Assembly: GCA_030141605.1 (NCBI GenBank)
Contig: JAQGDQ010001954.1
Coordinates: 1-19,384 of the forward strand
Reading direction: 5' to 3'
DNA length: 19,384 nucleotides
From: Tubiluchus corallicola
Taxonomy: Eukaryota; Animalia; Priapulida
The notes under the pieces were generated by a model. It saw only the letters and a list, made by a program, of their open reading frames with translations, ran no database searches and was not told where the DNA came from. This document shows, in pieces, positions 1-19,384 of the stretch. The position numbers and the translations under genes were made by a program. Within the stretch, counting starts at the first letter, position 1; every line of letters begins with the position of its first letter.

Positions 1-492
1 CTTGTTACGGTGTCACATATTTTATTTTTAAGTTAAAATTTGACAAAATAAGTAAAATTATGCGTTGAAGTATTCTGTGCGAATGGATTACAAGGCCAGC
101 AGTATAGCACAATTGGAAGTAGAGTTTGCATCTATAGCTGTTACGCTTACGCCCTTCGTTTTTTTGTAGCTTTAGGCTTGTGAGACCCTTAATCCGCCCC
201 TGGGAATATGGGAGATCTTCATTCCAATCTGCAATGCGTCTCAGTCTTGAATATGAATGACGATATGTTGCTTATTATAGGCGATAATTGCTTTTAACCC
301 TTAAGCGACAAAAGGTTTTTGTATTACGCTAAAAACCAAGCGGGGTAACAAATTACCCCAAGAAAGTTTCGCTTAATATGTGTTACTAACTGGACAGAAT
401 GACCAACTGGCAATCGAGGTGCCCCAGTTAGTGACAAAACCAAGTTCTGCAGCAGGACGGCATAGATGTATGAGGACAGCAAAGACGAAATG

Positions 493-952
493 AAGTGATC
501 CACCATTGCACCGTATAGTTTATGCATGGTTCATCAAGTCTTTTAACAATTCTTCTACAAGGTTAATGATGTTTACTGTTCATTTGTGAGACATCCACTT
601 CATCTCCACTTGCTGTGTATTCTAAAAATTCATCTTCCTCAGCTTCAATCAAGTGATCCACCATTGCACTGTATAGTTTATGCATGGTTCATCAAGTCTT
701 TTAACAATTCTTCTAATAGGTTAATGATGTTCACTGTTCATTTGTGAGACGTCCACTTCATCTTCACTTGCTGTGTATTCTAAAACTTCATCTTCATCAG
801 CTTCAATCAAGCGATCCACCATTGCACTGTATAGTTTATGCATGGTTCATCAAGTCTTTTAACAATTCTTCTACAAGGTTAATGATGTTCACTGTTCATT
901 TGTGAGACATCCACTTCATCTTCACTTGAACTTCATCTTTGTCAGCTTCAAT
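493..952 (+). repeat. 158-bp tandem repeat, about 2.9 copies (mirrored at ~5910-6370; single copy at ~7253-7430)
   Basis: gatccaccattgcac recurs at 497, 655 and 813. Confidence 0.9.
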
Positions 953-1186
953 CTTAGCCGCCTGCACAGCAATGTCCACAAACATGAAATTTCCTCAGTA
1001 GATTGTTAGAAAAATCAGTTTGTGCAGCTACAATTGGAAGTTTGCAGCACTTCTTGGTTGTCAACGTAAACATAATGTTGTTGCCATGAGAAACCTTTGG
1101 ATTTTGTCGTGTTGATGTGCTTTGTAAGTGTCATTTTTTTGCGTAAAGTGACTTTGATAAAAGAGTGAGTGTTATTTTCAAGGTAG

Positions 1187-1360
1187 GTTCAGAAAAGGTC
1201 ATAAATACGTCGGTAATCAACAGCACAGGTTTGGCAGCAGCATCAAGTACTGAGACGTTTATTTTCAAGGATGAGGACGATGGAAAACAACTAACTTGTG
1301 TTGTGTTTACTCATGAGCTCGTCAACAAACAGTTTGTCAACAAAACTCTTGATATCAAAT
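1187..1360 (+). pseudogene. Inverted duplicate of the Ig2 second-half exon (5504-5677): pseudo-exon, or exon of an oppositely oriented paralogous copy
   Basis: Same splice sites and reading frame as 5504-5677; one amino-acid difference (TFIFK vs TFVFK). No compatible downstream + strand exon found. Confidence 0.7.
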
Positions 1361-1488
1361 GTGAGTTTTGAGATATTTTCTCACACTTTCCTTTGTAAAA
1401 AATCGGATAAGAGTTGAGCCGGATTATCTTATAGGCTAGTATGTATAAGTACAGTAGTATATATAGTATATATATATACATATATAGC

Positions 1489-1826
1489 ATACTATACTAT
1501 ACTATACTATACTATACTATACTATACTATACTATACTATACTATACTATACTATACTATACTATACTATACTATACTATACTATACTATACTATACTAT
1601 ACTATACTATACTATACTATGCTACGCTACGCTACGCTACACTGCACTGCACTGCACTGCACTGCACTAAACTACACTACACGAAACTACACTACACTAC
1701 ACTACACTACACTACACTACACTACACTATACTACACTACACTACACTACACTACACTACACTACACTACACTACACTACACTACACTACACTACACTAC
1801 ACTACACTACACTACACTACACTACA
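1489..1826 (+). repeat. Compound pentanucleotide microsatellite (ACTAT)n-(GCTAC)n-(ACTGC)n-(ACTAC)n
   Basis: Direct reading. Confidence 0.95.
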
Positions 1827-2229
1827 CCCACTCTCTGGCTTTACGAGCAGTATTGTACTTCTGACTTAGGTTTTTCTTACACACCTACTCTCTGGCTTTA
1901 CGAGCAGTATTGTACTTCTGACTTTGGTTTTTCCTACACACCTACTCTCTGGCTTTACGAACAGTATTGTACTTCTGACTTGGGTTTTTCCTACACACCC
2001 ACTCTCTGGCTTTACGAGCAGTATTGTACTTCTGACTTAGGTTTTTCCTACACACCTACTCTCTGGCTTTACGAGCAGTATTGTACTTCTGACTTAGGTT
2101 TTTCTTACACACCTACTCTCTGGCTTTACGAACAGTATTGTACTTCTGACTTAGGTTTTTCTTACACACCTACTCTCTGGCTTTACGAACAGTATTGTAC
2201 TTCTGGCTTCGGTTTTTCCTACACACCTA
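1822..2229 (+). repeat. 57-bp minisatellite, 7 copies
   Basis: ctctctggctttacg recurs at 1831, 1888, 1945, 2002, 2059, 2116 and 2173. Confidence 0.95.
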
Positions 2230-2343
2230 AGTAATTCCTGACTGTTAGACAAATAAATTCTAGCTTAATTACCACTGTAATTGTTTATATATTCATTATT
2301 CATTCGAAAAAATTAGCAACAAAGGACAACAAGACCTTCTTAC

Positions 2344-2631
2344 GTTTTGTTTTCAGTGTATATTGGGCAAATCCTGCACCAAACCCATTGTCGACGTCAC
2401 ACGAATAGTCGCCAGCCTCCTCATCTTTAATAAAGTCCAAAGTTAGAATTTGATCAGTCTGATCAGCTAGCCGACCACTCGGACCACTCCAAACGAATGT
2501 CGGCAGGGGATTAGCGCGAACGTTGCACCGAAGAAGAACACTCGCTCCGGTTAGAACCGTAGTTCCATCTACAGCCACTTCGGCGTTTTCTGGTTCTAGC
2601 AGTGCTATGCTTACCGAATCAGGTGTCAGAT
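2344..2631 (-). CDS. Exon: immunoglobulin domain 3 (I-set-like)
   Basis: Acceptor gtattacag|AT and donor AAAC|gtaaga; 288 nt, phase 1-1. Motifs GASVLLRCNVRANPLPTFVW...LTLDFIKDEEAGDYSCDVDNGFG. Confidence 0.9.
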
Positions 2632-2784
2632 CTGTAATACGTTTTGAAATTAGATGTATTTGGAAAAGTTAGCTAACACAAAGACATTTGTAAAATGATA
2701 CAAAATGAAAAATTGTTTGTCAGACCAACCTGAGCATTGAAACGCCACACAACTATTCGACTTCGTTGGCTAAGGGAATGCTTA

Positions 2785-3036
2785 GGGCGCGTTCAGACTA
2801 GCGCGTTTACTGTCAGTAAAAAAGCATTCACAGCTATAAGGTTTGACGATTGTTATTTACAAACAAACTGTCGTTTCACATCTTAAAATAACAAGATTGT
2901 ATGATTCATACGGAGATGACGATAGCTAGCAAATGTTTATTGTTCACAAATTATACTAATCGTTTTCTTATATTGTGCCAGGCTTTGCTGCAAAGGTGCG
3001 AAAAATGTGGCTATTAAGGCCAGTGTGAACCTGACT
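2785..3036. mobile_element. Possible degenerate PIF/Harbinger-like MITE
   Basis: Imperfect TIRs gggcgcgttcagactag / ccagtgtgaacctgact (about 11/17 match) flanked by TTA and TAA. Confidence 0.3.
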
Positions 3037-3541
3037 TAAAAAATATTATTTTTGTAGCCACGGTGGATCCATCTAGATGGAAAGTTTAAAGTGTGGGCAT
3101 TGACCTAGTTATGTTTTCATCATGCTGTTCTGTAGTATATGTGAACATGTGTCTTGTGCAAGCTAGTGAAATTTTTCATTAGATATATGCCGCAACGATG
3201 TAAGTTTACTTCTATTAATTTTTATTTTGATTTATTCATTGATATTTCTGAATGGACTAAATAACTGTCAATCCAACTAAACTTGTAACATTTCATAAAA
3301 TTAGCCAATGTCAGTCACTTTTGCTTTTCTATTTTAATTTTTAAATATTGCAGAAATAAAGATCAGTGGTTTACATGAAATTCAACTGAGACTTTTGAAG
3401 ATTTGTCATAAATGTCTCTCAGAGACACTAACAGTGGCAATGATAAATTTGCACACATGCCAGAAGCACTACAATCATATTGTAACTTATACAGCTTCCA
3501 GATGCCATTGTTATACGTAACTCGTATTTTGTTAAAGACGA

Positions 3542-4452
3542 TAGAGGCGTCTCGTATACAGGTACTGTGGAACTGCAGCACCCCCTATTTTCACTCATTA
3601 TTATCGACAATATACAATATAATAAGTCTTTTTTCTTTAGTTCTTTCTTTATACTTGTACGGTCCAGAGCACGTTAGGGTAGTACTGTTTGCTTCACAGC
3701 CCAGCACAGTGTGCTCTAGCAACGCAGAATTGCGCTGTAGCGGGCATGTGCACACGTCTGAGCCCAGGTAGAGAAAGTACTGTCGCTCACACAGTTTGGG
3801 AACCAGAGCACGGGAGGGTAGTACTGTTTGCTTCACAGCCCAGCACCGTGTGCTCCAGCAACGCAGAATTTGGCTGTAGCGGGCATGTGCACACGTCTGA
3901 GCCCAGGTAGAGAAAGCGCTGTCACTCACACAGTTTGGGAACCAGAGCACGGGAGGGTAGTACTGTTTGCTTCACAGCCCAGCACAGTGTGCTCTAGCAA
4001 CGCAGAATTTGGCTGTAGCGGGCATGTGCACACGTCTGAGCCCAGGTAGAGGAAGTACTGTCACTCACACAGTTTGGGAACCAGATCACGTGAAGGTAGT
4101 ACGGTTTGCTTCACAGATCAAGCACAGTGTGCTCCAGCAGAATTTGGCTGTAGCACACGTCTGAGCCCAGGTAGAGAAAGTACTGTCGCTCACACAGTTT
4201 GTTGTTATTTGTCACGTGCTTAAAAACCGCGTACCTGCATATTCTTGAACAACGGCAATTTAGGCTATTCATAAGCAAACAACATTTTTTGTTTAGGATT
4301 TTACCAAGTTTATGTATAAATTTTCGTACGTTTGTTTGTTTAAAATTACAACATTAAAATTACACGTTTGTTTTGTTTTACACTGTATTAAAACAAAGGC
4401 TAAAAATTGTCTGAAGCAGTACCCCAGTAATTTTAGCAATGAGCCCCCAACG
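3542..4452 (+). mobile_element. Non-autonomous DNA-transposon-like element, copy A (degenerate hAT-like ends), containing the 139-bp array
   Basis: Collinear similarity to 6959-7725 in three blocks (3599-3710, 4171-4237, 4255-4410). Ends tagaggcgtctcgt / atgagcccccaacg; no clear TSD. Confidence 0.5.
3664..4200 (+). repeat. 139-bp tandem repeat, about 4 copies (last copy partly deleted)
   Basis: ccagagcacg-like unit starts at 3664, 3803, 3942 and 4081. Confidence 0.93.
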
Positions 4453-4530
4453 AGTGACATACGATAAAAATTACAACAATATTTCTTAAAAATATGTAAT
4501 TTAACATCGAGGAAACATGCTCTGATTATA

Positions 4531-5375
4531 CTATATATAGCATAGTATATATACTACTATACTATTCATATACCATATATATATATAGTATATATGGTAT
4601 AGTATGGTATATAGTATATATACATAGTATAGTAGTATATATACTATACTATATACATTAATAGTATATATATAGTATAGTATATATATAGTATATGGTA
4701 TATAGTATAGTACATATAGTATGTAGTATACTATACAGTATATAGTATATATAGTGTAATGCAGTGTAGTAAAGTGTTGTGTGGTGCAGTGTAGTGTAGT
4801 GTAGTGTAGTGTAGTGTAGTGTAGTGTAGTGTAGTGTAGTGTAGTGTAGTGTAGTGTAGTGTAGTGTAGTGTAGTGTAGTGTAGTGTAGTGTAGTGCGGT
4901 GCGGTGCGGTGCGGTGCGGTGCGGTGCGGTGCGGTACGGTACGGTACGGTACGGTACGGTACGGTATGGTATGGTATAGTGTGGTATAGTATAGTGTAGT
5001 TTAGTGTAGTGTAGTGTTGTGTAGTGTGTGTAGTGTAGTGTAGTGTAGTGTAGTGTAGTGTAGCGTAGCGTAGCGTAGCGTAGTGTAGTGTAGTGTAGTG
5101 TAGTGTAGTGTAGTGTAGTGTAGTGTAGTGTAGTGTAGTGTAGTATAGTATAGTGTAGTATAGTGTATATAGTATAGTATAGTGTAGTGTAGTGTAGTAT
5201 AGTGTAGTGTAGTGTTGTGTAGCGTAGCGTAGCATAGCGTAGCATAGTATAGTATAGTATAGTATAGTATAGTATAGTATAGTATAGTATAGTATAGTAT
5301 AGTATAGTATAGTATAGTATAGTATAGTATAGTATAGTATAGTATAGTATAGTATAGTATAGTATAGTATAGTAT
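4531..5375 (+). repeat. Compound microsatellite: degenerate TA-rich tract, then (TAGTG)n-(CGGTG)n-(CGGTA)n-(TGGTA)n-(TAGTG)n-(TAGCG)n-(TAGTA)n
   Basis: Direct reading. Confidence 0.95.
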
Positions 5376-6859
5376 GCTATATATGTATATATATATACTA
5401 TATATACTACTGTACTTATACATACTAGCCTATAAGATAATCCGGCTCAACTCTTATCCGATTTTTTACAAAGGAAAGTGTGAGAAAATATCTCAAAACT
5501 CACATTTGATATCAAGAGTTTTGTTGACAAACTGTTTGTTGACGAGCTCATGAGTAAACACAACACAAGTTAGTTGTTTTCCATCGTCCTCATCCTTGAA
5601 AACAAACGTCTCAGTACTTGATGCTGCTGCCAAACCTGTGCTGTTGATTACCGACGTATTTATGACCTTTTCTGAACCTACCTTGAAAATAACACTCACT
5701 CTTTTATCAAAGTCACTTTACGCAAAAAAATGACACTTATAAAGCACATCAACGCGACAAATTCCAAAGGTTTCTCATGACAACAACAATATGTTTACGT
5801 TGACAACCAAGAAGTGCTGCAAACTTCCAATTGTAGCTGCACAAACTGATTTTTCTAACAATCTACTGAGGAAATTTCATGTTTGTGGACATTGCTGTGT
5901 AGGCGGCTAAGATTGAAGCTGACAAAGATGAAGTTCAAGTGAAGATGAAGTGTCTCACAAATGAACAGTGAACATCATTAACCTTGTAGAAGAATTGTTA
6001 AAAGACTTGATGAACCATGCATAAACTATACAGTGCAATGGTGGATCGCTTGATTGAAGCTGATGAAGATGAAGTTTTAGAATACACAGCAAGTGAAGAT
6101 GAAGTGGATGTCTCACAAATGAACAGTGAACATCATTAACTTATTAGAAGAATTGTTAAAAGACTTGATAAACCATGCATAAACTATACAGTGCAATGGT
6201 GGATCACTTGATTGAAGCTGAGGAAGATGAATTTTTAGAATACACAGCAAGTGGAGATGAAGTGGATGTCTCACAAATGAACAGTAAACATCATTAACCT
6301 TGTAGAAGAATTGTTAAAAGACTTGATGAACCATGCATAAACTATACGGTGCAAAGATGGATCGCTTCATTTCGTCTTTGCTGTCCTCATACATCTATGC
6401 CGTCCTGCTGCAGAACTTGGTTTTGTCACTAACTGGGGCACCTCGATTGCCAGGTGGTCATTCTGTCCAGTTAGTAACACATATTAAGCCAAACTTTCTT
6501 GGGATAATTTGTTACCCCGCGTAGTCTTTATCGTAATACAAAAACCTTTTGTCGCTTAAGGGTTAAAAGCAATTATCGCCTATAATAAGCAACATATCGT
6601 CATTCATATTCAAGACTGAGACGCATTGCAGATTGGAATGAAGATCTCCCATATTCCCAGGGGCGGATTAAGGGTCTCACAAGCCTAAAGCTACAAAAAA
6701 ACGAAGGGCGTAAGCGTAACAGCTATAGATGCAAACTCTACTTCCAATTGTGCTATACTGCTGGCCTTGTAATCCATTCGCACAGAATACTTCAACGCAT
6801 AATTTTACTTATTTTGTCAAATTTTAACTTAAAAATAAAATATGTGACACCGTAACAAG
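5224..6859 (-). repeat. Right arm of the large inverted duplication
   Basis: Reverse complement of 1-~1640; mirrored ORFs 324-527/6333-6524 and 1165-1371/5493-5699. Confidence 0.95.
5504..5677 (-). CDS. Exon: second half of immunoglobulin domain 2
   Basis: Acceptor ttttcaaggtag|GT and donor AAAT|gtgagt; 174 nt, phase 1-1. Peptide GSEKVINTS...FKDEDDGKQLTCVV...KTLDIK(Y) carries the DDGxxLTC motif and completes the domain begun at 8905-9045. Confidence 0.85.
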
Positions 6860-6958
6860 TCAGATTGCTACCAAACTTCTTGGAAACCATTAAAAATGTC
6901 GTGGAGCTGTTCTTCAGGTTCTGTAACAGACTTGTGAAGAGCTTTTGTCGTTAGTCCA

Positions 6959-7725
6959 TAGTGGCGGCTCGGCCTATTTTCAGTGGATATTATCGATAAT
7001 AATCGATATAATAAGTCTTTTCCTTTAGTTCTTCTTTATACTTGTACTGAACTAGAGCATATGACGGTAGTACTGTTTGCTTCACAGCCCAGCACAGTGG
7101 TGCGTTCGACTGTTGTGTGCATACGGCCATGCACACATGTCTGAGAAGACACGCGTACGCTTCACTGCTAGCGTCTCCTGCTAGATAGAGAAAGTACTGC
7201 TGCTAATACAGTTTGTTGTCGGTTGTCACGTACTTAAAAACCGTGTATCGGCGTCAGCTTCAATCAAGCGATCCACCATTGCACGGTATAGTTTATGCAT
7301 GGTTCATCAAGTCTTTTAACAACTCTTCTACAAGGTTAATGATGTCCACTGTTCATTTGTGAGACATTCACTTCATCTTCACTTGCCGTGTATTCTAAAA
7401 CTTCATCTTCGTCAGCTTCAATCTTAGCCACCTACACAGCAAAAATCCCTGCCATTTTGTATTAATTGAAGAATGTCCACAAACATGAAATTTCCTCAGT
7501 AGATTGTTAGAAAAATGAATAGCAATTTAGGCTATTCATAAAAAAATTGTGTTTAGGGTTTTATCAAGTTTATGTATAAATTTTCATACGTTTATTTGTT
7601 TAAAATTACAATTATAAATTACAACATTGAAATAACATATGTTTGTTTCATTTTACACGGTATTAAAATAATGACAAAAAATTATTAAGCATCCCTATTA
7701 ATATTTGAGCTACGAGATGCCACAC
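6959..7725 (+). mobile_element. Non-autonomous DNA-transposon-like element, copy B
   Basis: Ends tagtggcggctcg / acgagatgccacac. Homologous to 3542-4452 but with a single 139-bp-type unit and an extra ~260-bp segment (7253-7515) matching ~795-1015. Confidence 0.5.
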
Positions 7726-8236
7726 TCGTAACGAAAGGGAACCATGTTGTTTGCCATGCCTTTTAGCCTGGTTTAACGAAAAGAGAGTTGCTGTTCGTCA
7801 AAGAGGCTGTGCATCTGATGAAGATTCTAAAACGTTGGACAACAAGAAATATCGCTGAACGTGTCTAAATGTTCTACTCTTATTGTTTTGGATATAAGTA
7901 CGTGGTGCCTCCTTGTGTTTGTTTTTTGCAAATCTAGGCTGTTGATAGACAGGTGAGGTACGACAGGAAATAGGCCATTGGCCTCATTTTGCAGACAGGA
8001 TAGGAAAGAAGTCATTCTTGTTCAGTACGTCGTGTCGTTTTATAACAAAATTTTGTCAGTCGAGTTCTGTTTAGCAAGTTAGTAAGATGCGGCAAAGATG
8101 TAAGTTTCATTTCTTCATATTTCATAATATTATTACACATTTTCATTATAGCAGTTAATTATCCTTTTGACATTGGATTAGCAGAAAACGTTTGTTATTT
8201 GCTTCTGATAAAATGAAGTCGAGTCGCTCATAACAT

Positions 8237-8276
8237 GTCAGTCAGTCAGTCAGTCAGTCAGTCAGTCAGTCAGTCA
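8237..8276 (+). repeat. (GTCA)n microsatellite, about 10 units
   Basis: Direct reading. Confidence 0.95.
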
Positions 8277-8281
8277 AATAT

Positions 8282-8549
8282 GTGATACTGATTTTGGGAT
8301 GAGACGATGATTGCCCATTTTGGACAATAAAAAATCATAAATTACATCTAAAAGACTGTTGGACTTGTATTTAGCACATGTCGTGCATACTTATAAGGGT
8401 GAAATTCTTGCATCTAGTTGACCTAAGTATCTACATTACCTTTGTGTTTAAAATACCTTATGTCCAAATTACAGTGTCCAAAACATCGAGTGCCCAAACG
8501 GCCAAATATTGTCTTATCCAAATGTTTTATGGCGAAGCATCCTGTATCC
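8282..8549. mobile_element. Possible old foldback/MITE remnant
   Basis: ttttgggatgagacgatgattgcccattttggaca (~8292-8326) is an imperfect reverse complement of tgcccaaacggccaaatattgtcttatccaaa (~8491-8522). Confidence 0.3.
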
Positions 8550-8904
8550 AAACGTATCGTGAAAAATGAAATATTTTATGTACAATATAGTGTCAATCGC
8601 TCAAATATCTTTAGCGTATTCAGATTAAATAATTAAAAGGCCTTATCATTATTTAACTTGGCTTCAATTTGATGATTTCGAAGGCCTATCAAAATTCAAG
8701 TTATAAGGATATGAACTTGTTAGCCTGATGGTTAATCCGCCCCTAGATACACATTTGGCAAGGTAATGACCCAAGACGAACAGCCATTAACTAATTTTCC
8801 TTCCAGTTACAAACCAGGCTCAATGCTGACTAACTATGACACGCCATGATCACCCAACTGCCTCTCCTCTTAGCATAAGAAGAAATTAAAAACGTTCTGC
8901 ATAC

Positions 8905-9045
8905 CAACAAACCATGTCATGACAGGAGGTGGGTTTCCATTTTCCGTTTCGCACGCGATGTCGACTTCCTCTCCAGCTGTCACGGTGATGGTGGCGCCAC
9001 GTTCAATAACGCCACCAAGTTTCATGTTAAGCCGATTGGGTTGAA
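8905..9045 (-). CDS. Exon: first half of immunoglobulin domain 2 (C2-set-like; not in ORF track)
   Basis: Acceptor ttaattaacag|TT and donor GTTG|gtatgc; 141 nt, phase 1-1. Peptide VQPNRLNMKLGGVIERGATITVTAGEEVDIACETENGNPPPVMTWFVG (C...GNPPP.MTW). Confidence 0.88.
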
Positions 9046-9128
9046 CTGTTAATTAAGCACAAATCGTGATTAGGAAACGGAAAAAGAAATAAAAAACAGT
9101 CGCAGGATAATAAATCATCAACACTATA

Positions 9129-9276
9129 TGGTAAATCCTCGCTTAACGACACCCCGTTTAGCGACGTTTCGTTTTAACGACGCCGATCATTTGAGACCTT
9201 TTTTCACTTAACAACACACGTTTCGCTTAACACGCTTCGCTTAACGTCATTAGCGTTGTTAACTGAGGACTTACTC
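9129..9276. mobile_element. Short pogo/Tigger-like (Tc1/mariner superfamily) MITE
   Basis: Imperfect TIRs tggtaaatcctcgcttaacgac / gttgttaactgaggacttactc, with TA on both sides (9127-9128, 9277-9278) and internal cgcttaac-like subrepeats. Confidence 0.6.
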
Positions 9277-10164
9277 TATTGTGGTCTCCAGTTGGAATAA
9301 TTTTGCCATTTATGGCATCTTCATCTGTAGAGCAAGAAAAACAGTTGAAATTAGTAATAAAATTGTTGGGATGACAATGATATTATATGCCACAATTATA
9401 TCAAAATATTTTGAAATAGCTCCCCAAACATTACCTAAGTCGCATTTGAGTTACCAAAACACATACGAAATTTCTATGTCTACATTTGACTTACCTAAGT
9501 CACATTTGAACTTTCCTGTGTCCACAATTGACGTGTAAAACCTATAGTTATTGTACACTTAACCTTTGACCTACAGCAATTACGCATAGCGAAACTATTA
9601 ACAGGCTGGAAAATTAGTAGAGTACGTGGTGTGGACAATTATTATGCATTATTCGCGATTTTTTCGAAATTTTGACCAAAGAGCCTGCGGAAAAAACGTT
9701 CTAGCGGCGCCTGGTGGGACTGTCAGAAAGTCATATATAGCTTTTTAGAAAGAGGAAGAACAGGGCTACACGATGGTGTGGGCTATATTTTAGGACACGT
9801 CCACTGAGAGGAGTATCAACGAGTTAATTAGATGTTCTATTTTCGGCAATTTTCGCTTAGAAAACTGCTGACGCAATGCCATTGTTGTGACGTCATCCAT
9901 TATACTCTGCCTATAACCTTATAACTTTAATTCTGTAAAAGCTGCCGCTGCTGGCTTTGCGTTAGATAAACAGACAAACACTAGGTAGGATGTTCGCGTA
10001 TTTTTGATTATACGTGTAAATTTATACGCAAAATTTTTTGCGGGGCCTTTGCTAGTGCATTATTATTGCATAGACATTGTTATCCGCACTTTTGTTATAG
10101 TTTTTCATTTGGTTCTGTCCTGTAACGTTAACAAAAGTCACTAAATAATAATGAAAATATTTAC

Positions 10165-10506
10165 CAACGGGCACCAAGCGTCCGAACCGGGACTCCCCAT
10201 ATCCCAGAGAACTTTGGTACGTACAAGCATAAGCACCATTCCACTCCAGACTCACATTTAGGAATCTGATGCTGTAGTCTCCAGATGTTTCTGGATTTGG
10301 ATCAACCAACTCCACATTGGGATCATCCAAACTAAGAGGGGTGTCCACAACCTGTCCAAAAACTCTTCGCTTCCACTGGATAACTTTGTCACCTGCGTTT
10401 TCTGACATGTACACTTCCATTATGACGCAGTCTAGCGAAGCACTCCCTCCCAATAACAAAAATGTCTCAATTTCCGGTTCCTTGGAAAAAACATCCCCTT
10501 CTGAAG
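10165..10506 (-). CDS. Exon: immunoglobulin domain 1 (V-set-like)
   Basis: Acceptor cattttccttgcag|CT and donor GTTG|gtaaat; 342 nt, phase 1-1. Motifs GGSASLDC...IQWKR...GDYSIRFLNVSLEWNGAYAC. Confidence 0.9.
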
Positions 10507-10567
10507 CTGCAAGGAAAATGTATAGCATTATTGTAAAATTTTAGCAACAAAGTGCATGCCTTACATG

Positions 10568-10598
<31 letters not shown>

Positions 10599-10706
10599 TG
10601 AGCTAAACAGGTGAAAGTGCATTGTATTGTTCTATTCATAGGCACCAGGCCAACCTACAGGTAATGTTATGACCTCCACTTTAAACTAGGAAGCCCATCA
10701 CATTAC

Positions 10707-10730
10707 CTGCGATTGGTTGAGCAGTGGTTT
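10707..10730 (-). CDS. Possible 24-nt linker micro-exon (ETTAQPIA)
   Basis: Donor GCAG|gtaatg; pyrimidine-rich acceptor gttcgttctttccacaag| (uncommon AAG) with a CTGAC branch-like motif about 30 nt upstream. Phase 1-1, so inclusion or skipping keeps the frame. Confidence 0.35.
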
Positions 10731-11017
10731 CTTGTGGAAAGAACGAACACGTGACATCGTCAGTTGTCTTCTGGTTGTCGTGGAATGCACTTCTCCTGTC
10801 TGCCTGCCGAGTGTCGTGGATTCCGTAAGAGTAGAAGCATTGTCATCAGGTTATGTTTTTTCTATTGTGTTGTTCTTCTCAGCCGTCCCTTTTGAATTCT
10901 AAGTTTTGGTTTTGTTGTTTCTTTTTTTTAAATTTCTGGAGTGTCCGTTATGCAGCGCTTACCCGCATCACCGATGGCGGCCCGTAAGGCTATCTACCGG
11001 GTCGAACCCCGGAACAC

Positions 11018-11074
11018 ATATATATATATATATATATATATAATAAATACATAGAATAAATATATATATATATA
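11018..11074. repeat. Interrupted (TA)n microsatellite
   Basis: Direct reading. Confidence 0.85.
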
Positions 11075-11269
11075 TTGTTGGCATGGTAACAGTTATGCTG
11101 TTGGCACTAACAGTGTCAGGATCATCAACACCATCATCATTACTGTTGCCATTATTTGGTTGTAGCTGCTACTGCGGCGGTGGTGGCAGCAACGGTGGCA
11201 GTAGTGGCGATGGTAATGGAGGTTGTGGTGAATGATATTCCTGTTGTGTAACAATACAGAGGTATCAGG

Positions 11270-12646
11270 ATAATCACATCAGTGAATGTAAGACTGTTCC
11301 ATGCCATGAGATCATGACAATCACATCAGTGAATGTAAGACTGTTCCATGCCATGAGATCAAGACAATCACATCAGTGCATGCAACACTACTCCATGCCA
11401 TGAGATCAAGACAATCACATCAGTGCATGCAACACTGCTCCATGCCATGAGATCATGACAATCACATCAGTGCATGCAACACTGCTCCATGCCATGAGAT
11501 CATGACAATCACATCAGTGCATGCAACACTGCTCCATGCCATGAGATCATGACAATCACATCAGTGCCTGCAAGACTGTTCCATGCCATGAGATCAAGAC
11601 AATCACATCAGTGCATGCAACACTGTTCCATGCCATGAGATCAAGCAATCACATCAATGCATGCAACACTGTGTCATGCCATGAGATCATGACAATCACA
11701 TCAGTGCATGCAACACTGTTCCATGCCATGAGATCAAGACAATCACATCAGTGCATGCAACACTGTGTCACGCCATGAGATCATGACAATCACATCAGAG
11801 CATGCAACACTGTGTCACGCCATGAGATCATGACAATCACATCAGAGCATGCAACACTGTGTCACGCCATGAGATCATGACAATCACATCAGAGCATGCA
11901 ACGCTGTGTCATGCCATGAGATCATGACAATCACATCAGAGCATACAACACTGTGCCATGCCACAAGGTCAAGCAATCACATCAGTGCATACAACACTGT
12001 GCCATGCCACAAGGTCAAGACAATCACATCAGTGCATACAACACTGTGCCATGCCACAAGGTCAAGACAATCACATCAGAGCATGCAACACTGTGTCACG
12101 CCATGAGATCATGACAATCACATCAGAGCATGCAACACTGTGTCATGCCATGAGATCATGACAATCACATCAGAGCATGCAACACTGTGTCACGCCATGA
12201 GATCGTGACAATCACATCAGAGCATGCAACACTGTGTCACGCCATGAGATCATGACAATCACATCAGAGCATGCAACACTGTGTCATGCCATGAGATCAT
12301 GACAATCACATCAGAGCATGCAACACTGTGTCATGCCATGAGATCATGACAATCACATCAGAGCATGCAACACTGTGTCACGCCATGAGATCATGACAAT
12401 CACATCAGAGCATGCAACACTGTGTCACGCCATGAGATCATGACAATCACATCAGAGCATGCAACACTGTGTCACGCCATGAGATCATGACAATCACATC
12501 AGAGCATGCAACACTGTGTCATGCCATGAGATCATGACAATCACATCAGAGCATGCAACACTGTGTCATGCCACAAGGTCAAGCAATCACATCAGAGCAT
12601 GCAACACTGTGTCACAGCCACGAGGTCAAGTCAATCACATCAGTGA
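11270..12646 (+). repeat. 45-47-bp minisatellite, about 29-30 copies (gacaatcacatcagagcatgcaacactgtgtcacgccatgagatcat)
   Basis: Direct periodicity; sequence variants are clustered along the array. Confidence 0.95.
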
Positions 12647-12742
12647 AGAAACACACCCCTATACTACATGATTTAATCCCACTACAAGCTCTGGTAGTCT
12701 GTTACCCACGACAATGTCATGTAAATCATAATGTCCGCTTAC

Positions 12743-12974
12743 CAGTTTCTGTCTTAAACATGACTGGCGTGGATCTTCTACCCTCAACTTGTTTTCCATA
12801 TTCTCCTGCTGTGACTGCTATAGCAACAAAGTAGTAAGCGTTACGCTCTAGATTCTCAAGAGCGTGGATGGCTTCTCCACGACTAAATAACCGATTATGT
12901 ACGAGCTGCCACTCAGGTTCCAAAGCTTTTCTGAGGTAGACCAGCGTTTGTACGTAGTGAGAACTGGCAGTGCC
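12743..12974 (-). CDS. Exon: C-terminal part of the fibronectin type III domain
   Basis: Acceptor ttttttccag|GGC and donor ACTG|gtaagc; phase 0-1. Peptide includes HALENLERNAYYFVAIAVTAGEYG...STPVMFKT (FN3 LxxxxxY motif and terminal FxT). Confidence 0.85.
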
Positions 12975-13092
12975 CTGGAAAAAAACTGGCAATAATATCT
13001 AATTCGTTTATGATTTTGTTTTTCAAATTGCTTCTAACAAGGCCAGTTTTCAGATTGCTTCTAACAAGGCCAGTAATCGCACACAAAAATAA

Positions 13093-14599
13093 AAATGGTC
13101 AAAAAGTAAACACAAATAGGAAAAGGTAAAGACAAATGGTCAAAAATAATCACAAATGGTCAAAAAGTAAACACAAATGGTCAAGAAGTAAACCCAAATA
13201 GGCAAAAGGTAAACACAAATGGTCAAAAATAATCACAAATGGTCAAAAATACACACAAATGGTCACAACGTAAACACAAATGGTCACAAAGTAAACACAA
13301 ATGGTCACAAATTAAACACAAATGGTCACAAAGTAAACACAAATGGTCACAAATTAAACACAAATGGTCACAAAGTAAACACAAATGGTCACAAAGTAAA
13401 CACAAATGGTCACAAAGTAAACACAAATGGTCACAAAGTAAACACAAATGGTCACAAAGTAAACACAAATGGTCACAAATTAAACACAAATGGTCACAAA
13501 GTAAACACAAATGGTCACAAAGTAAACACAAATGGCCAAAAATTAAACACAAATGGTCACAAAGTAAACACAAATGGTCACAAAAAAACACAAATGGTCA
13601 CAACGTAAACACAAATGGTCACGAAGTAAACACAAATGGTCACAAAAAAACACAAATGGTCAAAAAGTAAACACAAATGGTCACAAACAAAACACAAATG
13701 GTCAAAAAGTAAACACAACACACACGAATGGTCACAAAGTAAACACAAATGGCCAAAAATTAAACACAAATGGTCACAAAGTAAACACAAATGGTCACAA
13801 AGTAACCACAAATGGTCACAAAGTGAACACAAATGGTCACAAATTAAACACAAATGGTCACAAATTAAACACAAATGGTCACAAAGTAACCACAAATGGT
13901 CACAAAGTAAACACAAATGGTCACAAAGTAACCACAAATGGTCACAAAGTAAACACAAATGGTCACAAAGTAACCACAAATGGTCACAAAGTGAACACAA
14001 ATGGTCACAAACAAAACACAAATGGTCAAAAAGTAAACACAAATGGTCACAAACAAAACACAAATGGTCAAAAAGTAAACACAAATGGTCAAAAAGTAAA
14101 CACAAATGGTCAAAAAGTAAACACAAATGGTCACAAAGTAAACACAAATGGTCAAAAAGTAAACACAAATGGTCACAAACAAAACACAAATGGTCAAAAA
14201 GTAAACACAAATGGTCACAAACAAAACACAAATGGTCACAAAGTAAACACAAATGGTCACAAAGTGAACACAAATGGTCAAAAGTAAACACAACACACAC
14301 GAATGGTCACAAAGTAAACACAAATGGTCACAAATTAAACACAAATGGTCACAAACAAAACACAAATGGTCAAAAAGTAAACACAAATGGTCACAAACAA
14401 AACACAAATGGTCAAAAAGTAAACACAAATGGTCACAAACAAAACACAAATGGTCAAAAAGTAAACACAAATGGTCACAAACAAAACACAAATGGTCACA
14501 AACAAAACACAAATGGTCACAAAGTAAACACAAATGGTCAAAAAGTAAACACAAATGGTCAAAAAGTAAACACAAATGGTCAAAAAGTAAACACAAGTG
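13093..14599 (+). repeat. 21-bp minisatellite, about 70 copies (aaatggtcacaaagtaaacac)
   Basis: Direct periodicity; explains all ORFs at 13219-14726. Confidence 0.97.
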
Positions 14600-14638
14600 G
14601 CTCGTACTGCCTAGAAAATTTAAAACTTCAAATCACAC

Positions 14639-14727
14639 CTTATATATTGTTGATTCGTCCCAATTTATATTTGCTGATTTTCCTGTAATGTTGGTCACCC
14701 TTGGGGGATCTTTTAGATATGGATGAG
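14639..14727 (-). CDS. Exon: N-terminal part of a fibronectin type III domain (not in ORF track)
   Basis: Acceptor aatttcatttcag|CT and donor AAG|gtgtga; 89 nt, phase 1-0, which bridges the WSC exon (ends phase 1) and the next exon (starts phase 0). Peptide AHPYLKDPPRVTNITGKSANINWDESTIYK has the FN3 A/B-strand pattern. Confidence 0.8.
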
Positions 14728-15163
14728 CTGAAATGAAATTGTTGTGATAATGAGAATTAATGGTAGCAATGTATAGGAAACAATTTGATGATATACATTT
14801 TGTTATGCAGTTATTGCTATAATGAAAGTAAGTGTTTTTAAGATTTAGACTTAGCAGAAAGTTGTAGTATCTTAGGGAGGTGCTGCCGTCTTTTGGTTGT
14901 TTGCCTGTAAAATTGATTGACCTATTTCTTAAGCTGTTTACTGTACTATCTATTTACATACCATTTACTGGGTTTCAACTAGAGTTAATGATGTGTAACA
15001 GGAGTCCTGGCTATTGTATGTTAGGCAGTAGTAGTTCGGGTTTCATACTCTGCTGGTAAAGTTCAGATTTCAAATTTCATAATGTAGTTTGTTAAAGTAT
15101 GTTTGCTTCAAATTATATTTTGTGGTTTTTTTATTTACCTAAACTGAGGTTAGTGCTTTAAAT

Positions 15164-15381
15164 TGTGTAACGTGGTGTGGTGTGATGTGTGTGTGTGTGC
15201 GTGTGCGTGCGTGCGTGCGTGCGTGTGTGTGTGTGTGTGTTTGTAGTATGTTGTTGTGTAACGTGGTGTGGTGTGGGTGGTATAATATAGGTGGCGCTTT
15301 GTGGGTGGTGTGATGTGTCTGTGTGTTGTTCTGTAACGTGATATGGTTTGATTGGTATGATATAGGTAGTGTTTTGAGGGT

Positions 15382-15419
<38 letters not shown>

Positions 15420-15443
15420 CGTGTGTGTGTGTGCGTGCATGCG

Positions 15444-15474
<31 letters not shown>

Positions 15475-15888
15475 AACGTGGTATGGTTTGATTGGTAAGA
15501 TATAGGTAGTGTTTTGAGGGTGGTGTGTGTGTGTGTGCGTGCGTGTGCGTTGTGTAACGTGGTGTGGTGTGGGTGGTATGATATAGGTGGTGCTTTGTGG
15601 GTGGTGTGATGTGTCTGTGTGTTGTTCTGTAACGTGGTATGGTTTGATTGGTAAGATATAGGTAGTGTTTTGAGGGTGGGTGTGTGTGTGTGTGTGTGTG
15701 CGCGTGTGTGTGTGTGTGCGTGTGTGTGTGTGTGTGCGTGTGTGCGTGTGTGTGTGTGTAACGTGGTATGGTTTGATTGGTAAGATATAGGTAGTGTTTT
15801 GAGGGTGGTGTGTGTGTGCGTGCGTGCGTGTGTTGTGTAATGTGGTGTGGTGTGGGTGGTATGACACAGGTGGCGTTTCGTGGGTGTT
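15164..15888 (+). repeat. GT-rich complex repeat with ~290-bp higher-order structure (A-B-B-A-B-B-A) interleaved with (GT)n/(GCGT)n
   Basis: tgtaacgtggtgtggtgtgggtggta (A) at ~15257, 15553 and 15836; tgtaacgtggtatggtttgattggtaagatatagg-like (B) four times. Confidence 0.85.
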
Positions 15889-15913
15889 TTGGCTAGTTAA
15901 TCATAGCACTCAC

Positions 15914-16099
15914 CTCTATTTGTCTGGTAGACGCTCAAGTAGCCATCAAAACCACCACATATGGCAAAATTTTGTCGTCCTGTAAAGGCACCACCACACA
16001 CGGTATCACAGAATTGCTCATCCACTACTGACGCGTTCACGGGTGCGTCGAAGGCGCATACGCATTCATCGTAACCAGCTAATACTGCAAAATTTATTC
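15914..16099 (-). CDS. Exon of a WSC-FN3-Ig cell-surface/secreted protein: C-terminal half of a WSC domain
   Basis: Acceptor ttgtttttag|GA and donor AGAG|gtgagt; 186 nt, phase 1-1. Peptide GINFAVLAGYDECVCAF...EQFCDTVCGG...AICGGFDGYLSVY fits the WSC pattern (ECxC...CxxxCxG...CGG...SVY). Confidence 0.85.
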
Positions 16100-16166
16100 C
16101 TAAAAACAAGCAACATGCGCATTGTGATTATTACCATAATAAATTAATGCCTTGCGCTGTGGTGTG

Positions 16167-16205
16167 GTTGACCAGCTGACCAGTTGACCAGTTGACCAGC
16201 TGACC
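16167..16205 (+). repeat. 8-bp tandem repeat (gYtgacca) x5
   Basis: gttgaccagctgaccagttgaccagttgaccagctgacc. Confidence 0.85.
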
Positions 16206-16219
16206 TCCAACATGTGGAT

Positions 16220-16330
16220 CAGGGCCGGCCTTAAGCATAGGCAAACTAGGCAACCGCCTAGGGCCTCACCCTCCAGAGGGGCCTCACGCCGAGGTAACAT
16301 TTTTTTTGCTTTATGCGAACATGCTGCCTC

Positions 16331-16361
<31 letters not shown>

Positions 16362-16484
16362 CCTCTCTCTCTCTCTCTCTGTCCCTCCTCTCCTCTCCTC
16401 TCCTCTCTCTCTCTCTCCCCCTCCTCTCCCCTCTCCCCCTCTCCCTCTCTCTCTTTCTCTCTCACTCTCTCTCTCTCCCTCGCG

Positions 16485-16560
<76 letters not shown>

Positions 16561-16718
16561 CCTCTCTCTCTCTCTCTCTCCCTCCTCTCCTCTCCTCTCC
16601 TCTCTCTCTCTCTCCCCCTCCTCTCCCCTCTCCCCCTCTCCCTCTCTCTCTTTCTCTCTCACTCTCTCTCTCTCCCTCGCGCTCTCCTCTCTCTCTCTCT
16701 CTCTCTCCCCCCTCTCTC

Positions 16719-16758
<40 letters not shown>

Positions 16759-16903
16759 CCCTCTCTCTCTCTCGCTCTCTCACTCTCTCTCTCGTAAATT
16801 GCGTAATTTTATTTTTTTCGTTCTTATTTTTTATTTTTCTGTTTCATTTGGGGCCACCAAATTCACTTCGCCTAGGGCCTCCAATTACCTAAGGCCGGCC
16901 CTG
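16220..16903. mobile_element. hAT-like MITE with an internal (CT)n expansion
   Basis: Perfect 14-bp TIRs CAGGGCCGGCCTTA / TAAGGCCGGCCCTG; flanking direct repeat TGTGGAT (16213-16219, 16904-16910); subterminal cgcctagggcctc at both ends. Confidence 0.85.
16327..16793 (+). repeat. Polypyrimidine (CT)n tract with an internal ~200-bp duplication
   Basis: The block ending ...ctttctctctcactctctctctctccctcgcgctctcc occurs at ~16383-16490 and ~16581-16688. Confidence 0.95.
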
Positions 16904-17592
16904 TGTGGATGCTTGAAGCACAAGAAAACCCTTCATAAACATAAAGCTTACAAAATTCGTTTTGAAATTTTATATCACTTACATACTGCCTTTTTGCATG
17001 CAGGACTTCAATCGGCAGTCACGCTGTATAAAACATTTGTGTAAATTTAAACTCCCGCGATGATCGTTAGATGCAGCCATTTTCACAACAGGTCATTTGA
17101 AACAAGTTTAGATAACATTTTGTAAAGTTTGAAAAAATAATCAGAGCATTCGTAGCACACACGTCACTAACTAAATAAAATTTAAAATTACTGTATCTTG
17201 TCAATAATATTAAAAATACGTTTTTGGTTAGTGAGTGGTGACCCTGGAGGGTGAGTCAGCGACATTTTACCAATTGATGAAAACATTTTAAATAATTAAT
17301 AATTTTCTTTTCTAGTTACATAAGTCTTTCTAGTAGGTAAGGGAAAATCTAAGTAACATAGATTTGCACGGAAAGTCTGGAAACATAATTTAACATTGCC
17401 TTTTCTTCCCTTGATTTACGTTTGGTACATGACGTCATGTAATGGCGACTTCGGAACAGTATTGAGGGAGATTTAAAATGAAAACAAACTAAAATTGCTT
17501 TCAGTGCGAGTACGATATGTACATAAAATTGCTGTAAAGTAGTATAATTTTTAAGGCGATTTTTCTGAAACCTACTTCAGGTACCCCTTTTC

Positions 17593-17740
17593 TTGTCCCT
17601 TAATCCCTTCACAGACGAAGGAACTGATCATTGTGATGCTCTTTTGGAGCTTCGAGCGGATTATTCACTGAAAGGAGTTTTCAAAACGTTTAGCCATCCC
17701 ATGAATTTCTGGGCTACCCTGCTTGATATTCCAGAGAGAA
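17593..17740 (+). pseudogene. Fragment resembling a hAT (Buster/ZBED5/FAM200-like) transposase C-terminal region
   Basis: LNPF...DALLELRADYSLKGVF...MNFWATLLDIPE resembles the NPF...LIEL..D..LK..F...FW......PE pattern preceding the hAT dimerisation motif (recalled pattern, not a database hit). It breaks off where the ribozyme array starts. Confidence 0.5.
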
Positions 17741-17742
17741 TT

Positions 17743-17876
17743 TTTTCAGTAGCTTTCACCCTAGCGGGCCTCATCAGCTGAATAGAAAGTGTTGCTAACT
17801 TCAATGTCTTTATAGTCTCAAAGATTATAATGTTTATTCACGAGCTTTCACCCATGCGGGCCTCATCAGCTGAAAA
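17743..17876 (-). ncRNA. Tandem pair of minimal type I hammerhead ribozyme motifs (predicted double hammerhead)
   Basis: Minus strand reads ttttcag-CTGATGA-G-GCCC-gcat-GGGT-GAAAGCTC-gtgaata and, 92 nt later, tattcag-CTGATGA-G-GCCC-gcta-GGGT-GAAAGCTA-ctgaaaa. Confidence 0.8.
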
Positions 17877-17926
17877 GAAAGTGTTTTTAACCCGAAAATC
17901 AGTTATGAAGATTTAGTCCTCTCCCA

Positions 17927-19384
17927 GTTTACCAGCACTTTCTATTCAGCTGATGAGGCCCGCTAGGGTGAAAGCTCGTGAATAAACATCATAATCCTTG
18001 AGACTATAAAGACTTTGAAGTTACCATCACTTTCTATTCAGCTGATGAGGCCCGCTAGGGTGAAAGCTACTGAATGAACATCATAATCCTTGAGACTATA
18101 AAGACTTTGAAGTTACCATCACTTTCTATTCAGCTGATGAGGCCCTCTAAGGTGAAAACTCGTGAATAAACATCATAATCCTTGAGACTATAAAGACTTT
18201 GAAGTTACCATCACTTTCTATTCAGCTGATGAGGCCCGCTAGGGTGAAAGCTCGTGAATAAACATCATAATCCTTGAGACTATAAAGACTTTGAAGTTAC
18301 CACCACTGTCTATTCTGCTGATGAGGCCCGCTAAGGTGAAAACTCGTGAATAAACATCATAATCCTTGAGACTATAAAGACTTTGAAGTTACCATCACTT
18401 TCTATTCAGCTGATGAGGCCCACTAGGGTGAAAGCTCGTGAATAAACATCATAATCCTTGAGACTATAAAGACTTTGAAGTTACCATCACTTTCTATTCA
18501 GCTGATGAGGCCCGCTAGGGTGAAAACTCGTGAATAAACATCATAATCCTTGAGACTATAAAGACTTTGAAGTTACCATCACTTTCTATTCAGCTGATGA
18601 GGCCCACTAGGGTGAAAGCTCGTGAATAAACATCATAATCCTTGAGACTATAAAGACTTTGAAGTTACCATCACTTTCTATTCAGCTGATGAGGCCCTCT
18701 AAGGTGAAAACTCGTGAATAAACATCATAATCCTTGAGACTATAAAGACTTTGAAGTTAGCATCACTTTCTATTCAGCTGATGAGGCCCGCTAGGGTGAA
18801 AGCTCGTGAATAAACATCATAATCCTTGAGACTATAAAGACTTTGAAGTTACCATCACTTTCTATTCAGCTGATGAGGCCCGCTAGGGTGAAACCTCGTG
18901 AATAAACATCATAATCCTTGAGACTATAAAGACTTTAAAGTTAGCAACACTTTCTAATCAGCTGATGAGGCCCGCAAGGGTGAAAGCTCGTGAATAAACA
19001 TCATAATCTTTGAGACTATAAAGACTTTAAAGTTAGCAACACTTTCTAATCAGCTGATGAGGCCCGCAAGGGTGAAAGCTACTGAATAAATATTATAATC
19101 TTTGAGACTATAAAGACTTTGAAGTTACCATCACTTTCTATTCAGCTGATGAGGCCCTCTAAGGTGAAAACTCGTGAATAAACATCATAATCCTTGAGAC
19201 TATAAAGACTTTAAAGTTAGTAACACTTTCTAATCAGCTGATGAGGCCCGCAAGGGTGAAAGCTCGTGAATAAACATCATAATCTTTGAGACTATAAAGA
19301 CTTTAAAGTTAGCAACACTTTCTAATCAGCTGATGAGGCCCGCAAGGGTGAAAGCTACTGAATAAATATTATAATCTTTGAGAC
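17927..19384 (+). ncRNA. Tandem array of 92-bp units, each with a minimal type I hammerhead ribozyme motif (16 copies, runs off the window)
   Basis: CTGATGA at 17950, 18042, 18134, 18226, 18318, 18410, 18502, 18594, 18686, 18778, 18870, 18962, 19054, 19146, 19238 and 19330. Each is followed by a stem II (mostly GCCC-N4-GGGT), GAAA and CTC/CTA, and flanked by stem I strands tattcag / (c/g)tgaata. Confidence 0.85.

Follow-up and report, generated by a model that had tools for sequence, protein, structure and literature searches.

The tandem hammerhead repeat at the right end of the analysed stretch of Tubiluchus corallicola DNA (19,384 nucleotides, hereafter the window) resembles a non-LTR retrozyme in construction and a Penelope insertion in layout. 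Overall it is best explained, with a probability of about 0.6, as a head-to-head pair of hammerhead repeats pasted by a Penelope enzyme, reshaped by later repeat turnover and mostly unable to cut itself. The array is likely a mostly decayed member of the published Penelope-derived hammerhead tandems, and neither the hammerhead-repeat class nor the unit size is new, since both have been published.

The right arm of the repeat occupies 17927..19384 on the plus strand and comprises 16 tandem 92-bp units (R01-R16), continuing past the end of the window. The earlier note had described 16 or more copies with an exact 92-bp period, and this was borne out: TRF reported 17929-19384 as period 92 with 15.8 copies, 94% matches and no indels, and the CUGAUGA box was found in all 16 plus-strand copies at 17950+92k (the last at 19330), the spacing being 92 in 15/15 cases. 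Each right-arm unit carries one minimal type I hammerhead motif, in which a 7-nt stem I strand, the core box, an extra G, stem II, GAAA, the stem III word, the cut-site base and the second stem I strand follow one another. Stem II is 4 bp long with a G-U closure in 12/16 copies and one mismatch (C-A) in 4/16, and the extra base stands after A9. The stem III word is loopless and reads AGCU in ten copies, AACU in five and ACCU in one, in agreement with the counts given before. Of the stems described in the earlier note, the motif itself stood, but stem I proved mispaired beside the cut site in 13/16 copies and stem II carried the C-A mismatch in 4/16; similarly, the plus-strand extent was correct, but an inverted two-copy arm at 17740-17893 had been overlooked.

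The core boxes CUGANGA, GAAA and UH occur in type I order in all 16 plus-strand and both minus-strand copies. A relaxed minimal-hammerhead descriptor matched 13/16 plus and 2/2 minus copies, the three plus-strand misses having two stem I mismatches each. The hammerhead motif is not due to chance, because the descriptor was empty in shuffled units (0/20000) and found no site in 100 shuffles of positions 1-17700. An Infernal-type check with a hammerhead type I model, suggested in the earlier note, fell short: Rfam Hammerhead_1 (RF00163) scored 15.1-16.6 bits, against a gathering score of 34, on three of the five copies in 17700-18200, and reported nothing at E<=1 over the whole window. Such scores, far below the gathering score, would suit a plain satellite whose likeness to a hammerhead is accidental, or an artefact of the assembly, but this explanation is hardly credible in view of the 20000 shuffled units that all failed the descriptor, the patterned block differences, the diverged inverted arm and the clean junction.

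A pattern scan for relatives gave no match in viral contigs and none in prokaryote genomes, in collections that hold little animal DNA. One match in a metagenome contig was dismissed as chance, lying in frame inside a 1158-codon bacterial gene and without stems I and III. A conserved run of peptide (L001, 3024-3047) in a bacterial outer-membrane receptor gene, which we take to be SusC-like, can spell the hammerhead core pattern and produce false hits.

The origin of the hammerhead motif is very probably Penelope, and the repeat is likely a non-coding piece of the terminal repeat of a Penelope-like element. According to the accessible text of Cervera and de la Pena 2014 (PMC4209133), the minimal hammerheads of Penelope elements have a base between 9 and 10.1, a palindromic 15.2-16.2 pair, U-rich sequence before and AU-rich sequence after the motif, and they are found paired on opposite strands, 100-700 bp apart. 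Judged by eye in the 56-motif alignment of that source, several motifs have G10.1-U11.1, several have AGCU and at least one has an extra G. The motif anatomy supports the earlier assignment to minimal type I hammerheads of the Penelope kind, workable only as dimers. The description of the core as atypical was overstated, given that the extra base after A9, the G-U pair at 10.1-11.1 and the palindromic stem III are all present in published Penelope motifs. At 17978-17991 and in each unit, the 11 bases after stem I match an acorn worm Penelope hammerhead at 10/11 positions, by eye. No frame of 100 codons that could represent the Penelope reading frame (reverse transcriptase plus GIY-YIG) was found in 17045-19384, and this lack within the window counts against the explanation by Penelope insertion.

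The left, inverted arm lies at 17740..17893 on the minus strand and holds two motif copies, L1 with its core at 17869 and L2 with its core at 17777. Both arms begin at one phase, ~22 nt upstream of the core, in each a CUC copy comes first and a CUA copy second, and phase and copy-for-copy register agree between them. The match of the left arm to the unit ends at 17740, 10 nt past the predicted L2 cut site. Comparison with all 15 neighbour pairs of the right arm gave 11-21 differing bases in 150, the nearest being distant pairs (11/150) and the adjacent pair differing at 14/150. Since the left arm is this far from every right-arm pair, the arms must have diverged after their formation. Together they make up an inverted repeat of ~150 bp with ~90% identity (17740-18080 in the window). 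An intron transcript of both arms would give a long double-stranded hairpin, a possible source of edited or small RNAs, and an Rfam MIR821 match was set aside as reflecting the long inverted repeat only.

The outer end of the left arm adjoins a dead transposase fragment at 17599..17736 on the plus strand, FAM200-like (hAT/Buster-type, the label Buster being our assumption), with 42/46 residues identical to P0002. In Pfam, P0002 matches the hAT dimerisation domain only weakly (E 0.043). Transposase homology stops at 17736, three bases before the outer end of the arm, and these three bases (17737..17739, strand unassigned) are the outer junction, not clearly assignable to either the unit or the expected target. 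As the left-arm end adjoins the transposase just where homology stops, the hammerhead repeat interrupts unrelated transposon DNA. The named relatives of the transposase are from decapod crustaceans; hAT-type transposons can move between hosts. A preceding transposase piece (16194..16220, plus strand) is cut off by two other insertions. The first, at 16220-16903, splits the dead transposase and is a non-coding element with inverted ends, flanking 7-bp direct repeats and a long CT run, presumably a MITE. The second, at 16914-17598, has imperfect inverted ends flanked by TTAA and TTGA, one on each side, and is assumed to be Kolobok-like. Three insertions lie within ~170 bp of one transposase.

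The nearest host exon (15915..16078, minus strand) encodes the latter half of a WSC domain (Pfam E 0.0037, short of the curated threshold) and starts at a splice acceptor. Because this exon begins mid-domain at an acceptor, the hammerhead element probably lies in an intron upstream of the WSC exon, in an inferred gene model. Over 1100-16078 the minus strand carries exons of a probable WSC, FN3-like, multi-Ig cell-surface protein, the FN3 label being assigned by eye to an exon for which Pfam gave no match. A search with two Ig exons for relatives returned no close homologue, and their searches in the protein-cluster atlas gave generic Ig clusters only. The Ig C2-type exon at ~5500-5684 (minus strand) has a near-identical copy in opposite orientation at ~1100-1330 (plus strand), and both copies are flanked by a 158-bp repeat and a 5-bp microsatellite, forming a large inverted duplication (~490-1830 and 4750-6370). 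More minisatellites are present in the gene at 11264-12643, 13093-14600, 1824-2229 and 3664-4201, with units of 47, 21, 57 and 139 bp, respectively. Tandem expansion is common at this locus, since these four further minisatellites lie in the same gene.

In the preferred explanation, both ends of one DNA cut would have primed reverse transcription on an uncut multi-copy RNA, leaving the 3' ends facing outwards and the 5' ends joined in the middle; this two-ended priming is favoured at somewhat better than even odds. The left arm would stop at an untailed start site, leaving 31 nt up to the unit boundary, as many as a Penelope 'tail' has; likeness to the end of this 31-nt segment may have favoured the site. 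The later multiplication of the array would likely have been that of any repeat DNA.

In Penelope insertions, an inverted copy lacking its 5' part typically sits directly at the 5' end, as presented in the accessible parts of PMC8557442 and PMC3846280, and this arrangement, with 3' ends outwards, is what was found here. Purified Penelope protein is described in the available text of PMC11167929 as cutting and extending both strands, starting inside the RNA and using uncut RNA. The left arm passes through a well-formed site and ends 10 nt beyond it, and arm ends that ignore the ribozyme cut fit enzyme start sites inside uncut RNA. The 31-nt segment, with a weak hairpin within it, is missing from the left arm; the published Penelope tails mentioned in the portions at hand of PMC11167929, PMC8557442 and PMC3846280 are 30-40 bp long, a range that would be reached by luck with a chance of ~1 in 8, and the right end falls outside the window. 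Two points count against the insertion model: the right end, at which a duplicated target and the remaining transposase would be expected, lies beyond the window, and a DNA fold-back also gives two in-register arms with equal starting phase.

The unit carries a segment that matches the codons expected after the transposase break (for example 18005..18018, plus strand), made up of the last 14 nt before the arm-start phase. It is present in 15/15 complete right-arm units and once in the left arm. For the match of the unit to the target codons, with the target continuation back-translated from homologous proteins and not read from DNA, 0/400 shuffles and 0/95 other transposase positions scored as high. 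From the sequences, this match is read as a look-alike target, with capture of target DNA into the unit as the main rival. A copied target duplication inside the unit was rejected, the left-side match being not significant (308/400 shuffles).

Such capture belongs to a scheme of birth in place, in which a truncated Penelope tip of ~78 bp and ~14 bp of duplicated target would have made up the 92-bp unit, followed by minisatellite expansion and later by a fold-back arm, with no mobile multi-copy RNA. It would account for the position of the target-like 14 nt exactly before the starting phase of both arms and for arms in register copy for copy, and a match of 12-14 nt exceeds what is usual for priming microhomology (2 bp or more in L1 data). 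The scheme requires three separate events, however, and the left arm is nearer to distant pairs (11/150) than to the adjacent pair (14/150). Moreover, the outer end is not random, lying just past stem I and an AATAAA-like word, and head-to-head arms are the norm for Penelope insertions in what was available of PMC8557442 and PMC3846280. Birth in place is accordingly considered unlikely.

The joint between the arms is 33 bp long (17894..17926, strand unassigned). Its segment 17904-17917 resembles the unit's own upstream segment as well as the codons expected after the transposase break, the latter match being weaker than that of the unit to the same codons, and a plain local alignment of the joint with the unit gave p 0.3. 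On these resemblances, the segment may come from the target or from a part of the unit that has since diverged. If it were target, two opposite-strand nicks ~15 bp apart could each have been primed separately, the intervening target being kept centrally or copied into the joint in repair. Positions 17904-17918 read Y-E-D-L-V, compared with mostly Y-K-D-L-A in 20 homologues; 1/400 spacer shuffles scores as high, and this is the sole place in the window with homologue-seen residues at all five positions (1 of 38740). However, E and V are each found in 1/20 homologues, so two amino-acid changes in 15 nt would be needed, and the spacer may itself be a diverged piece of the unit. The retained-target reading was lowered because the unit itself matches the same codons, and does so better, which leaves the two-nick route improbable.

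Variation among the copies points to turnover at the DNA level. Blocks of variants are duplicated (R03=R09, R06=R08, R13=R16), and the near-identical units seen in blocks today likely arose through later unequal exchange. Unit identity at lag 3 exceeded that of shuffled order with p 0.004 (one of four lags tried) and that of lag 1 with p 0.09. The signal comes from a triplet of a CUC copy, a CUA copy and a broken copy (R01-03, R12-14, R15-16), in which the CUC/CUA cases at R12-13 and R15-16 are not independent, being duplicates. With the arms diverged and some right-arm units identical, an old insertion with later DNA-level turnover is indicated, rather than a polymerase having gone once round one 92-nt circle.

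The earlier note had made stronger conservation of the core than of the spacer a test of its claim, and among the array copies no significant difference was seen: 0/12 core positions and 8/50 spacer positions were variable (p 0.34, a comparison of low power within one array), and the whole motif (9/42) varied like the spacer (p 0.59). Six changes are private to the left arm. Two of them, at 17875 and 17744 (17744..17875, minus strand), break their own stem I and pair together only in the dimer register, in the outer stem I. Random placements gave such pairing in 2258/200000 cases (p 0.011, noticed post hoc). Both changes lie in short runs near the arm ends. Paired changes could also arise when an imperfect palindrome is corrected at the DNA level. 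The 12 core positions unchanged in 16/16 copies, together with the compensatory pair in the left arm, give a hint of past or present function.

Whether the copies can cut was judged from their stems. The 1.1-2.1 pair is formed in R02, R13, R16 and L2 only, the other 13 right-arm copies and L1 having G2.1 facing G1.1. The stem III palindrome is broken in 6/16 right-arm copies, and a full 4-bp dimer stem III is possible only in R01-R02, R12-R13 and R15-R16 (3/15 neighbour pairs) and in L1-L2. In each of these four competent dimers the well-paired site is the second one, and in 0/15 neighbour pairs are both sites paired at 1.1-2.1. The R01-R02 dimer (17943..18076, plus strand) is the best formed of the right arm, with a 4-bp stem III, a 7-bp outer stem I and a predicted cut at 18069/18070. 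The R12-R13 dimer (18955..19088, plus strand; predicted cut 19081/19082) has one outer stem I mismatch and is near-identical to R15-R16 (19231..19364, plus strand; predicted cut 19357/19358).

The forced dimer fold lay above the best fold by 11.2-11.5 kcal/mol for L1-L2 and R01-R02 and by 16-24 kcal/mol for the other 14 pairs, in energies that omit magnesium and tertiary contacts and carry no calibration on a known active dimer. The chief reason for its disadvantage is an 8-nt palindrome spanning the start of the core, through which the copies pair with one another. In the presumed pre-mRNA of the host the left arm is sense, and folding predicts that the antisense right arm would hold it in a long hairpin (mean pairing 0.89). 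A mispair beside the core was used to reject hits in a published hammerhead survey (PMC3088659), and the weight given here to the G-G mismatch follows general background and that rejection rule. Published minimal hammerheads cut weakly even when intact, by the account in the accessible text of PMC4209133. Among the frog dimers tested, 8/9 gave no cleavage. In the lizard, according to the available text of PMC11167929, the Penelope ribozyme needs protein and is dispensable for insertion in vitro. The mispaired copies count as degenerate motifs, and most copies are predicted not to cut. It is highly probable from these models that the transcript is not cut every 92 nt but at best at a few CUA sites, by the core of the preceding copy and probably with the aid of protein.

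The earlier note had proposed that a transcript would be self-processed into 92- or 184-nt pieces that might circularise, making the array a very small retrozyme-like or Penelope-derived RNA replicon. With the 1.1-2.1 pair at 3/16 sites, none of them adjacent, cutting at the paired right-arm sites only would give predicted pieces of 276 and 1012 nt instead. The claim of a tiny circularising replicon fared no better: the predicted circles are no more folded than shuffles (z +0.52 and +0.22 for 92 nt, +0.33 for 184 nt, -0.66 for 276 nt, in a test that had no known retrozymes as positive control), and the arm ends lie off the cut site. In favour of an active array that spreads as a very small retrozyme are the core boxes, unchanged in 16/16 right-arm copies, and the circular RNAs given by tandem hammerheads of coral, mussel and axolotl, as reported in the part of PMC7229834 at hand. 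The mispair beside the core at 13/16 sites, the 12/15 neighbour pairs without a 4-bp stem III, the dimer fold 11-24 kcal/mol above the best one, the weak cutting of intact published motifs and the uncut frog dimers make this view quite improbable.

A more selective form of function may be imagined, in which the functional unit would be a helper-plus-substrate pair: an uncuttable CUC copy would lend its core and 5' strand and cut the next CUA copy, once per 276-nt triplet, the arrangement being kept by RNA selection and the RNA pasted by the Penelope enzyme at a look-alike of its own 31-nt tail. Taken as a whole this reading is doubtful; if true, it would also explain the stacking of Penelope elements into tandems. 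The literature on minimal-hammerhead tandems, echinoderm and crustacean cases and tail-like targets, covered mostly at the level of titles, describes no helper-substrate pairs or look-alike targets, and the supplements of PMC7229834 and of the 2026 preprint cited below may hold similar arrays. Should helper-substrate pairs or look-alike targets prove general, they would bear on the birth of Penelope tandems and retrozymes, and the role of minimal hammerheads in Penelope elements is still open according to the accessible text of PMC8557442. The locus is useful as a clean fossil, with a transposase target recognisable codon by codon, which makes the far end of the array informative about the mode of insertion. 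Its side-by-side natural variants (paired and mispaired cut sites, a compensatory pair) offer a ready test of the dimer model.

Each unit of this non-coding tandem repeat contains a type I hammerhead motif, as in the structural description of a retrozyme. Two consecutive complete motifs, which define the 'active' class of retrozymes, were found in 0/15 neighbour pairs by our own approximation of the authors' descriptor, and the highly self-paired circle expected of a retrozyme was not obtained for the predicted circles of 92-276 nt. The remark that the unit is short for such elements was overstated: in the available text of the 2026 preprint (bioRxiv 10.64898/2026.07.22.740005), which searched tandem repeats with canonical and minimal models, units range over 51-972 bp with a mean of 98 bp in its one lobe-finned fish, and arrays reach 300 units. 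Like the animal non-LTR retrozymes of PMC7229834 and of this preprint, as far as their accessible parts describe them, the array is a non-coding tandem with one type I hammerhead per unit, GC below 50%, a unit size within the published range, a proposed Penelope origin and local amplification. Unlike them, it has a 92-bp unit in place of the experimentally shown 170-400 nt circles, a minimal and not a canonical hammerhead, a weakly self-paired predicted circle and no two adjacent fully paired sites. It shares with newt satellite 2 and the axolotl retrozymes, in the portions at hand of PMC7229834 and PMC6155905, the tandem order, a weak palindromic stem III and a dependence of cleavage on dimers (predicted here), but not the 330-350 bp units, the palindromic tetraloop or the loop 1-loop 2 contacts of those repeats, whose expression and cleavage have been demonstrated.

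The minimal hammerheads in Penelope-like element pseudo-LTRs, as depicted in the accessible text of PMC4209133, agree with those of the array in the missing loop III, the palindromic 15.2-16.2, the extra base after A9, the U-rich 5' and AU-rich 3' flanks, the G-U pair at 10.1-11.1 (in some families), the nearby opposite-strand copy and the predicted action as dimers. In contrast to the motifs shown there, stem II is 4 bp (often 5-8), the extra base is G (consensus A, C or U), most copies are without the 1.1-2.1 pair, at least 16 copies stand in direct tandem and the window holds no Penelope frame. The insertions of endonuclease-bearing Penelope-like elements, in what was available of PMC8557442, PMC3846280 and PMC11167929, resemble the present locus in the inverted truncated 5' copy, the 3' ends facing outwards, the location within another transposon, an end that lies within the RNA and misses the ribozyme cut, and the absence of the 31-nt segment from one arm; unlike in those insertions, both arms here consist of 92-bp repeats. 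The unit resembles its target over ~12-14 nt at the break, whereas the lizard enzyme primed without homology in vitro in the account available from PMC11167929.
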